A stretch of DNA of 312 nt from Escherichia coli (GCF_003334255.1 NZ_QOWU01000267.1); one strand, 5' to 3'. Positions 1 to 312 are shown, numbered from the stretch's first letter. Notes: generated by a model from the letters alone, not told the origin. Numbers and translations: made by a program.

Positions 1-135
1 TACTGCTTCAGAAAGTTCAGCAAAATCCATCTGGTAAAGTTCCATCAGATAAGTCAGCACGATATTCTGGTGAACGCAACTGCCATACTTATCCGTCAGT
101 GTGATGGATTTACCAGTCAGCTCAATATCTGTCAC
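1..135 (-). CDS. 5' end of a protein-coding gene (3' part lies beyond the window's left edge); hypothetical protein, start codon uncertain
   Basis: Seen in sequence: the minus-strand frame with codons at 144..142 down to 3..1 is open for 48 codons after an in-frame TAG (147..145): F L A V T D I E L T G K S I T L T D K Y G S C V H Q N I V L T Y L M E L Y Q M D F A E L S E A V. The other two minus frames each contain several stops across 1..156. Candidate starts are GTG 135..133, GTG 60..58, ATG 45..43 and ATG 30..28; none has a strong Shine-Dalgarno (best is a GGA about 10 nt upstream of ATG 30..28). Codons are enterobacterial-like (CTG x5, GAT, GAA, AAA), whereas the same-phase plus-strand ORF uses rare codons (AGA, ATA x2, CTA, GGA) and is Cys/His-rich. 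The end coordinate assumes the most upstream candidate start, GTG at 135; no hydrophobic signal-peptide-like N-terminus is visible. Confidence 0.55.
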   Translation of the reverse strand, partial: MTDIELTGKSITLTDKYGSCVHQNIVLTYLMELYQMDFAELSEAV

Positions 136-149
136 TGCCAGAAACTACC

Positions 150-176
150 AAAAAAACGCCTGCACAAGGCAGGCGT
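150..176 (-). terminator. Rho-independent (intrinsic) transcription terminator oriented for minus-strand transcription
   Basis: Seen in sequence: on the minus strand, 5'-(A)CGCCTGC-CTTGT-GCAGGCG(T)-3' (stem 175..169 pairing with 163..157, 7 GC-rich bp plus an optional A176-U156 pair; 5-nt loop 168..164) followed immediately by TTTTTTT (156..150). On the plus strand the same hairpin is preceded by an A7 run and followed by tggtgtaaaaaggg, which is not U-rich, so it is essentially unidirectional. It lies about 33 nt downstream of the TGA stop of the upstream minus-strand CDS. Confidence 0.8.
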
Positions 177-208
177 GGTGTAAAAAGGGAACAGCGTATT
201 CCGGTTAT

Positions 209-312
209 TCAGTCCTGGTTAAGCGTACCATTACACTGCACCGGGACGTAATCCAGAGCCTGCAGCAACTGCTCATCTGTCAGATCCAGAAAATCTTTGA
301 TTTCCTCCAGAG
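209..312 (-). CDS. 3' end of a protein-coding gene (5' part lies beyond the window's right edge); hypothetical protein with acidic C-terminal tail ...LEEIKDFLDLTDEQLLQALDYVPVQCNGTLNQD*
   Basis: Seen in sequence: the reverse complement of 212..310 reads ctg gag gaa atc aaa gat ttt ctg gat ctg aca gat gag cag ttg ctg cag gct ctg gat tac gtc ccg gtg cag tgt aat ggt acg ctt aac cag gac, then TGA (plus-strand tca at 209..211). The other two minus frames hit stops within about 30-40 nt of the window edge. Codon usage is typical of highly used enterobacterial codons (CTG x6, GAT x4, CAG x4). The only competing frame (plus frame 1, 184..312) has no ATG, GTG or TTG start. An intrinsic terminator sits about 33 nt downstream of the stop on the same strand, as expected for a gene end. 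Confidence 0.7.
   Translation of the reverse strand, partial: LEEIKDFLDLTDEQLLQALDYVPVQCNGTLNQD

Follow-up and report, generated by a model that had tools for sequence, protein, structure and literature searches.

An Escherichia coli rpn gene on an integrating conjugative element is followed by a tandem copy of its 3' end, probably an antitoxin cassette

The stretch of DNA analysed here, called the window throughout, comprises 312 nucleotides and is 100% identical to a segment of the chromosome of E. coli STEC2018-553 (NZ_CP075665.1); phage and plasmid collections yielded no matches to it. The surroundings of the window form an integrating conjugative element (ICE) of the PFGI-1 class, and one record labels its pilL gene explicitly as 'PFGI-1 class ICE'. 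The gene order of this element reads topoisomerase III, a replication protein of the STY4534 family, ssb, rpn, a 'transposase', pilL, and the TIGR03759 genes; rpn and its downstream copy occupied the same slot, between ssb and pilL, in all loci compared. The window contains the 3' end of rpn (hereafter gene A), a terminator, and the beginning of the reading frame annotated as a transposase (hereafter gene B), all on the minus strand (Table 1); positions outside the window are given in the coordinates of the locus, L001.

Table 1. Annotated and predicted features of the 312-nt window, with the evidence for each.
Feature	Window position	Strand	Evidence
3' end of rpn, last 34 codons ...SLEEIKDFLDLTDEQLLQALDYVPVQCNGTLNQD, stop codon TGA at 211..209	209..312	-	annotated CDS, translation, TIGR01784
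Intrinsic terminator of rpn	150..176	-	terminator scan and folding
Duplication junction or 'filler' ggtagtttctggcagtgacagat	127..149	-	repeat boundaries 4166/4187
GTG, RefSeq start of 'transposase' WP_096955009.1	133..135	-	annotation; Shine-Dalgarno duplex -2.9 kcal/mol
rpn coding relic, parent codons ~193-234, IELxGKSITLTDKYGS.VHQNIVLTYLMELYQMDFAELSEAV	1..126	-	D1 repeat, 97% identical
Candidate promoter (predicted), ATGGCA 86..81, 16 nt, TATCGT 64..59	59..86	-	approximate PWM
Alternative candidate promoter (predicted), TTGAGC 125..120, 16 nt, CACACT 103..98	98..125	-	approximate PWM

Gene A (CDS at L001 3181-4104, 307 aa) is annotated as 'Rpn family recombination-promoting nuclease' and passed the TIGR01784 family model, whose cutoff is 52.1 bits, with a score of 101.9 bits. 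In the protein alignment, gene A has kept the residues that match the catalytic positions D11, D63, E82, Q84, and R94 of RpnA, together with the DDEI motif. The rpn genes are toxin-antitoxin systems organized as genes within genes, with the full-length product RpnL acting as nuclease and toxin (Zhong et al., 2023, PNAS, PMC10400941); a promoter and a translation start inside the gene give rise to a separate product of the C-terminal tail, RpnS, which blocks RpnL (PMC10400941). Mutating K240, E241, and M244 of RpnA, which correspond to the ribosome binding site and the start codon, abolished RpnAS (PMC10400941). By homology, gene A would encode an RpnL-type toxin of the PD-(D/E)XK nuclease type and, from an internal start, an intragenic RpnS antitoxin as well. 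Window positions 209..312 are shared by the full-length RpnL of 307 aa and the RpnS reading frame inside it, whose start lies upstream of the window.

The rpn stop codon is followed at a distance of 33 nt by a hairpin at 176..156 (minus strand), whose stem ACGCCTGC/GCAGGCGT consists of 8 bp, including 6 G-C pairs, and encloses the 5-nt loop CUUGU; a tract of seven U residues (156..150) comes directly after it. The hairpin alone folds with -14.1 kcal/mol (z = -4.9), a value reached by none of 200 shuffled sequences, and the terminator scan of the window returned two overlapping terminator-like calls where 0.3 were expected. The hairpin is the intrinsic terminator of the rpn gene itself, as predicted from its structure. 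An earlier note on this DNA had placed the end of the U tract at 150 and the first start codon of the next reading frame, GTG 135..133, only 14 nt beyond it; both coordinates were confirmed, and the 14-nt spacer ggtagtttctggca (149..136) directly precedes the GTG.

The RefSeq coding sequence WP_096955009.1, a 'transposase' of 122 aa, begins exactly at GTG135. An in-frame TAG (147..145) closes the reading frame of gene B, and of the start codons in the resulting maximal open reading frame GTG135 is simply the first. The earlier note had also remarked that this codon lacks a recognisable promoter and a Shine-Dalgarno sequence, and had pointed to internal ATG codons at 45..43 and 30..28; on all three counts it was right. 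A scan for the sigma-70 consensus found no site in the window, where 0.4 were expected, and the duplexes with the anti-Shine-Dalgarno sequence amount to -2.9 kcal/mol at GTG135, -1.7 kcal/mol at ATG45, and -3.3 kcal/mol at ATG30. Since all these energies are weaker than the locus-wide mean (-3.9 kcal/mol), none of the three codons is preceded by a recognisable Shine-Dalgarno sequence. The databases do not speak with one voice on this start: across records, the reading-frame family of gene B has been called at lengths of 122, 126, 95, 92, 87, 82, and 66 aa, and the same DNA is annotated from ATG45 or ATG30 in other records (the 92-aa and 87-aa forms).

The sequence downstream of the terminator is a second version of the sequence upstream of it. 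Two direct repeats (L001 3757-4166 and 4187-4607) are 95-97% identical and recur with a period of 430-442 nt; within them, the sub-repeat D1 (3757-3949 vs. 4187-4379) is 97% identical. Both repeats close with the same terminator, the second copy of which is located at L001 4578-4598, and a homologous terminator follows every repeated cassette, the last one included, with a conserved stem and a loop that varies across loci. Gene B is thus a duplicate of the last third of gene A, with its terminator included. The two proteins, ...DVIELIGKSITLTDKYGSSVHQNIVLTYLMELYQMDFAELSEAVSTHYPIHKGVIMTIAEQLEEKGRAEERSRL...QCNGTLNQD for gene A and VTDIELTGKSITLTDKYGSCVHQ...PSHKGVIMTIAEQLEEKGLEKGRAEERSRL...QRNGALNQD for gene B, differ in their tails by C/T in gene A and R/A in gene B. 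The TIGR01784 model (E = 1.4e-7) and the RpnA model (E = 1.2e-5) are matched by gene B at their C-terminal ends only. A Pfam search with the 122-aa reading frame found no significant family (DUF433 appeared weakly, with i-E = 0.004), and PADLOC gave no match to an Rpn model. The domain DUF4351 (PF14261), which has been noted for separate RpnS genes only 'in some species' (PMC10400941), was not matched by the gene B product; it is not a universal criterion for the RpnS family. The junction between the repeats (149..127, ~20 nt) resembles neither the parent gene nor its 3' flank.

A duplication of 430-442 nt copied the last ~115 codons of rpn together with the terminator and placed them directly behind the original terminator; the reading frame that opens 14 nt past the U tract is therefore leftover Rpn coding sequence that happens to be open back to the TAG in the junction. 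A gene start 14 nt behind a terminator is, in this case, most likely the outcome of tandem duplication and longest-ORF annotation and not a new mode of expression. The origin of gene B by tandem duplication, from the 3' third of gene A and the terminator, had escaped the earlier note; the duplication is invisible in the window, because the last 34 codons of gene A and the first 45 codons of gene B, all that the window covers of the two genes, do not overlap within the repeat.

In some strains, a second and separate copy of the antitoxin gene, designated rpnSs, is found directly downstream of an rpn gene, as ypaA (rpnESs) after rpnE and as rpnCSs after rpnC (PMC10400941); rpnCSs and rpnESs are duplications of the upstream gene, and the RpnESs protein has been detected (PMC10400941). 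In the protein alignment, M244 of RpnA and Met1 of YpaA/RpnESs correspond to M246 of gene A and to M57 of gene B. The rpn relic continues for 33 nt past the window to a Shine-Dalgarno sequence and an ATG at L001 4346; this ATG (L001 4346-4348, 34 nt beyond window position 1) is the codon of copy B that aligns with RpnA M244. Its Shine-Dalgarno sequence, AAGGGGG in AAGGGGGTGATC, forms a duplex of -14.8 kcal/mol, compared to a first percentile of -11.5 kcal/mol for the locus, and the duplex energy is identical to that of the parental internal site. Residues M1, T2, and A4 behind the start are invariant in 12 RpnS-like reading frames and define the motif M-T-(I/L)-A. The functional gene B is most likely the 66-aa reading frame MTIAEQLEEKGLEKGRAEER...NQD that begins at this ATG, as judged from the sequence, with the predicted product MTIAEQLEEKGLEKGRAEERSRLVLMMRQKGKSLEEIKDFLDLTDEQLLQALDYVPVQRNGALNQD, and GTG135 is most likely an artefact of longest-ORF annotation instead of a real initiation site. 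The ~170 nt between the terminator and the ATG, window positions 1..149 included, would serve as the 5' leader of the cassette. The earlier suggestion of an internal true start is therefore retained in one respect, a start further downstream with a leader behind the terminator, and abandoned in another, as ATG45 and ATG30 have no Shine-Dalgarno sequence.

An AlphaFold2 (AF2) model of the 66-aa product (pLDDT 74.6) contains three helices at residues 3-29, 34-41, and 45-53, the first of them long; the crystal structure of RpnAS (7TH0) is described as a three-helix bundle with a long first helix that dimerises. A Foldseek search of the PDB with this model gave no significant match (best E of 0.8, with HTH-like domains on top), and did not recover 7TH0; phmmer against the RpnAS sequence of 7th0 gave a weak match (E = 0.53). 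The product of copy B is likely an RpnS-type antitoxin, a function assigned by homology. As a whole, the window probably spans the point where an rpn toxin-antitoxin gene adjoins a tandem duplicate of its antitoxin-coding 3' module, an rpnSs cassette.

Downstream copies of this kind are the rule for the element: about 50 of the approximately 53 E. coli genomes with this ICE-borne rpn carry at least one. Their junctions differ in how much sequence is kept upstream of the start. Type I, the type of the window, keeps 169 nt and was found in 18 of 5426 E. coli genomes, among them SCU-171 with two downstream copies; the junction sequence is identical in all type I copies. Type II keeps ~80 nt and was found in 32 genomes, and the rpnE-ypaA junction of K-12 keeps 15 nt. 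The Shine-Dalgarno sequence and the ATG are retained at all three kinds of junction in spite of these very different upstream lengths, and the small reading frame was intact in all 23 copies examined. Copy lengths range from 61 to 85 aa, and the differences are always whole 4-aa units (LEKG, RAEG, LAEG) beginning at residue ~8-12; variation in the number of 4-aa repeats is a hallmark of RpnS (PMC10400941). Between diverged downstream copies, pN/pS is 0.16-0.18. The 9-mer 'ctggtaaat' occurs at both type I and type II junctions and is too short to judge whether type II arose from type I by internal deletion. Outside this set, a scan of the GTDB species representatives for the Shine-Dalgarno and start motif had no matches, and a metagenome scan for the junction found only four loci, all with the same architectures.

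The parent gene and its downstream copy are seldom alike; repeat number or tail type differs between them in six of seven architectures. In STEC2018-553, the parent rpn has no extra LEKG unit and the downstream copy has one, and both positions carry tail 1; the commoner allele combines a tail 1 rpn with a tail 2 copy downstream. The single-copy rpn of strain APEC E19035 has exactly the tail of the downstream copy in strain CM2. These mosaics of parent and copy fit frequent recombination between copies, as already noted by Zhong et al. (PMC10400941).

If the annotation were right, a 122-aa protein would be made from GTG135 on read-through transcripts by initiation independent of a Shine-Dalgarno sequence. 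This is highly improbable. The start is the one chosen by RefSeq/PGAP, almost every type I allele has the frame open from GTG135, and folding of the leader region is weak (z = -1.06), as might suit such initiation; yet the codon lacks a Shine-Dalgarno sequence, with a duplex weaker than the locus mean, it is simply the first start codon past the in-frame TAG, and other pipelines begin the same DNA at other codons. The extra 56 residues would be a truncated piece of the Rpn domain; the copies in the 32 type II genomes do without the first ~30 codons, and K-12 ypaA does without all of them. The persistence of the long frame is to be expected in a recent duplicate that exchanges sequence with a coding parent. 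All alleles but one keep the long GTG reading frame in frame; the exception, NCTC9112, has lost 1 nt in a homopolymer (G6 vs. G7) in a long-read assembly and may reflect a sequencing error. The NCTC9112 frameshift, as proof that the GTG reading frame is dispensable, was downgraded on account of this homopolymer difference. As a further caveat, pN/pS of the relic is 0.25-0.5 in downstream and parent-to-parent comparisons alike, with few substitutions, many of them shared with parent alleles; as the values equal those between parents, they do not demonstrate that the relic is non-coding.

Since the duplication included the terminator, copy B is insulated from its parent, and its transcription needs a separate explanation. 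The consensus scan that was blank in the window also found no sigma-70 site near copy B; the same scan found none inside K-12 rpnA, rpnC, and rpnE, despite the documented internal transcription starts of these genes (PMC10400941), and the missing consensus match near copy B is therefore uninformative. Promoter candidates come from a looser, self-made approximate position weight matrix (PWM) evaluated against a genomic null, and are predictions only. The candidate ATGGCA-16-TATCGT reaches the 99.8th percentile of the genomic null, with 92 nt between the end of its -10 element and the inferred start; the best PWM candidate of K-12 rpnA and rpnE, ATGACA-17-TTTAAT, ends 88 nt upstream of the internal start, so that the two positions (-92 and -88) are close to each other. 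The alternative, TTGAGC-16-CACACT, has a PWM score of 6.72 and also reaches the 99.8th percentile. Type II copies, with their ~80 nt upstream of the start, have neither candidate site, and a promoter at either of them cannot be general.

According to the proposed mechanism, the duplicated leader would carry the internal rpnS promoter, and each repeat unit would be a self-contained cassette of promoter, Shine-Dalgarno sequence, reading frame, and terminator; read-through of the terminator may add some transcription of copy B. As a working model for the transcription question alone, a promoter of its own is given about an even chance, transcription by read-through only is clearly less probable, and the absence of meaningful expression is less probable still. 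The last of these estimates applies to the transcription question only, and slightly exceeds the probability assigned below to a silent cassette overall.

The earlier note had proposed attenuator-like control of gene B. In this scenario, the hairpin acts as an attenuator of adjustable efficiency, and copy B expression is coupled to the transcription of rpn and rpnS. A downstream start close behind a terminator and the missing consensus promoter would suit it, as would K-12 ypaA, which lacks a promoter and a terminator and depends on co-transcription with rpnE. However, no competing antiterminator pairing was found, and whichever of three sequence contexts was folded, the minimum-energy structure included the terminator hairpin; the Rfam search brought up neither a riboswitch or leader nor any other family above threshold (best score 23.8 bits, gathering score 70), and no leader peptide is present. 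With no antiterminator pairing in any fold and no Rfam match, an attenuator is not supported; moreover, the hairpin is simply the terminator of rpn and is found again behind every cassette, the last one included. Regulated read-through is very unlikely, and the proposal was dropped in this form; passive read-through is possible. Such unregulated leakage is counted here as part of the preferred reading, an rpnSs cassette, and not as part of the attenuator alternative.

A different alternative takes copy B for a silent and essentially untranscribed relic of unequal recombination, which persists, or is useful, as donor or acceptor in swaps of the C-terminal module; the Rpn relic and the terminator would then be two homology arms, and copy B not an expressed gene. 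The terminator directly upstream and the lack of a consensus promoter agree with this, and so does much of the variation among copies: the mismatch of parent and copy in six of seven architectures, the single rpn of APEC E19035 with its CM2-type tail (which fits fusion or deletion between repeats), the tail 1 of the STEC2018-553 downstream copy in place of the commoner type 2 (a conversion-like mosaic), and the expansion to two downstream copies in SCU-171. Copies of rpnSs can indeed be lost by deletion or fusion (PMC10400941), and for losses by fusion RpnL has been suggested as a possible driver (PMC10400941). Against silence stand the detectable expression of RpnESs in K-12 (PMC10400941), the strong Shine-Dalgarno sequence and ATG of every copy with the small reading frame intact in 23 of 23, and the low pN/pS of 0.16-0.18, although such values could also stem from sequence exchange with parent copies that are expressed. 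Expression and a role as recombination substrate are, besides, not mutually exclusive. A silent cassette is unlikely.

A more speculative extension, and an unlikely one, is that the downstream cassettes, also or instead of being spare antitoxins, constitute a small archive from which recombination could switch the module that sets the specificity of the Rpn toxin-antitoxin pair. Each cassette is flanked by ~170 nt of Rpn relic on one side and by a homologous terminator on the other, and the relic could have been kept as an upstream homology arm; unequal crossover or gene conversion could move tails with a different repeat number or type into or out of the expressed rpnL/rpnS gene. If this were true, the pairing specificity of RpnL and RpnS would change in a single step, possibly under phage pressure.

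Whether or not cassettes are switched, the partner of the copy B antitoxin is a matter for caution. An RpnCS with one additional repeat no longer counteracts RpnC (PMC10400941). Copy B of STEC2018-553 has one extra LEKG compared to its parent, and since a difference of one repeat abolished the neutralisation of RpnC (PMC10400941), it is doubtful that copy B serves as antitoxin of the adjacent RpnL. Natural pairs of this kind, in which the copy and the adjacent toxin are one to four repeats or a tail type apart, provide ready material on whether the specificity of RpnL-RpnS pairing is set by repeat number, and likewise on the purpose of the downstream copies.

For annotation, the consequence is a correction. 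This protein family is now listed with at least five different start sites and under the labels 'transposase', 'DUF433 protein', 'RpnC/YadD family protein', or 'hypothetical'; its product is likely an RpnS-type antitoxin of 61-70 aa. The ICE-borne Rpn toxin-antitoxin system with its one or two terminator-insulated antitoxin cassettes joins the known examples of rpnC and rpnE.

Compared to known systems, the locus shares some features with an ordinary tandem duplication that has left a truncated pseudogene: the repeats are arranged head to tail with a short junction filler, and the over-extended reading frame starts at the first available start codon, on which annotation pipelines disagree. Unlike a truncated pseudogene, all copies have an intact Shine-Dalgarno sequence, start codon, and small reading frame; the cassette is present in ~50 of the ~53 genomes with the element, and its length changes are always in frame. 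The parent gene is a distinct ICE-borne Rpn paralog that shares no more than 34-39% identity with RpnA, RpnC, and RpnE.

The closest counterparts are the rpnSs genes rpnESs (ypaA) and rpnCSs. Like copy B, they consist of the RpnS-coding 3' module placed directly downstream of its parent by tandem duplication; they share the conserved MT(I/L)A start motif and the strong Shine-Dalgarno sequence, the repeat number of their first helix varies in steps of 4 aa, and loss or fusion with the N-terminal part of rpn is possible in both groups. The difference lies in the extent of the duplication, which in copy B comprises 169 nt of coding relic and the whole terminator, whereas rpnE-ypaA has 15 nt and no terminator, and in the arrays, which in the family of copy B extend to two downstream copies and include two alternative tail types. 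The intragenic antitoxins, among them RpnAS, RpnBS, and RpnCS, represent the same protein module with the same start position, and they are likewise derived from the C-terminus of the toxin itself; in contrast to copy B, they are nested within the full-length toxin reading frame. Copy B is not, and is therefore free to evolve independently of RpnL.

Two C-terminal tails that look unrelated are in circulation; the N-terminal helix and the repeats that precede them are the same, and the switch from one tail type to the other lies directly after RAEER. The downstream copy in the window strain, the tandem duplicate of the rpn 3' module, seems to have undergone conversion to type 1, together with its terminator. 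APEC E19035 has rpn in a single copy, and the tail of this gene that encodes RpnS (L014 1960-2169) is identical in protein sequence to the downstream cassette in CM2 (L013 2354-2563); this identity fits an event between the repeats, either fusion or deletion, or the reverse of such an event.

Type II junctions, in which the interval upstream of the small-ORF ATG is about 80 nt, have a downstream copy whose leader is closer to alleles of the type I lineage (GGATTTTGCTGAACTTTCTGAAGC) than to its own parent (GGATGTTGCTGAACTTTTTGAAGC), so the type II copy did not arise by recent self-duplication from the gene that now precedes it. The cassette array can also expand, since E. coli SCU-171 (NZ_CP054363.1; L010 399-2254) carries rpn followed by two identical downstream cassettes, so that the module is present three times with a period of 454 nt; every copy has a terminator of its own, and the junction is the same throughout.

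In one lineage a T-to-G change has turned AAGGGGGTGAT into a G7 run (L016 about 672-686). NCTC9112 has G6 at this site (L009 2030-2041), which places the long ORF and the small ORF in different frames, and PGAP calls only the 66-aa ORF there, under the name 'DUF433 domain-containing protein'; the G6 may be real, or it may be a homopolymer sequencing error.

Opposite rpn, a terminator-like hairpin lies inside the coding sequence, and it is present twice because of the duplication; only three of its 11 pairs are G-C, and it is probably a chance match. A 37-aa GTG ORF on the same strand, running across the terminator hairpin, is without support and most likely spurious.

Tail types, leaders and opposite-strand features, with their positions in the window, in the STEC2018-553 locus (L001) and in other compared loci
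Feature	Position	Strand	Sequence or comparison
Tail type 1, downstream copy	L001 4346-4546		...SRLVLMMRQKGKSLEEIKDFLDLTDEQLLQALDYVPVQRNGALNQD
Tail type 2, downstream copy	L003/L004/L017, e.g. L003 3601-3786		...KKALEATYASVRRMSDMGMSTEVIKQALQLSDEQIREALHN
Type II leader, downstream copy	L012 2310-2392		compared with L012 1880-1962
Terminator-like hairpin	window 289-312, continuing to L001 3995	+ (opposite rpn)	GAAAATCTTTGATTTCCTCCAGAGATTTTC, then T-rich tail
Second copy of this hairpin	L001 4437-4466		
37-aa GTG ORF	window 70-183	+	

The best promoter-like site common to K-12 rpnA (L006 5781-5809) and rpnE (L007 5518-5546), ATGACA-17-TTTAAT, ends 88 nt ahead of the internal start of RpnS; a stricter consensus promoter scan of the two genes missed it. 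This candidate is a plausible location for their documented internal promoter.

The downstream copy usually differs from the intragenic RpnS of the neighbouring rpn (table of 23 copies; for example, L001 3916-4101 vs. 4346-4543). It has one additional four-aa repeat, two or four fewer, or the other tail type, and the two match in only one of seven architectures. In RpnC, a mismatch of a single repeat abolished neutralisation (PMC10400941).
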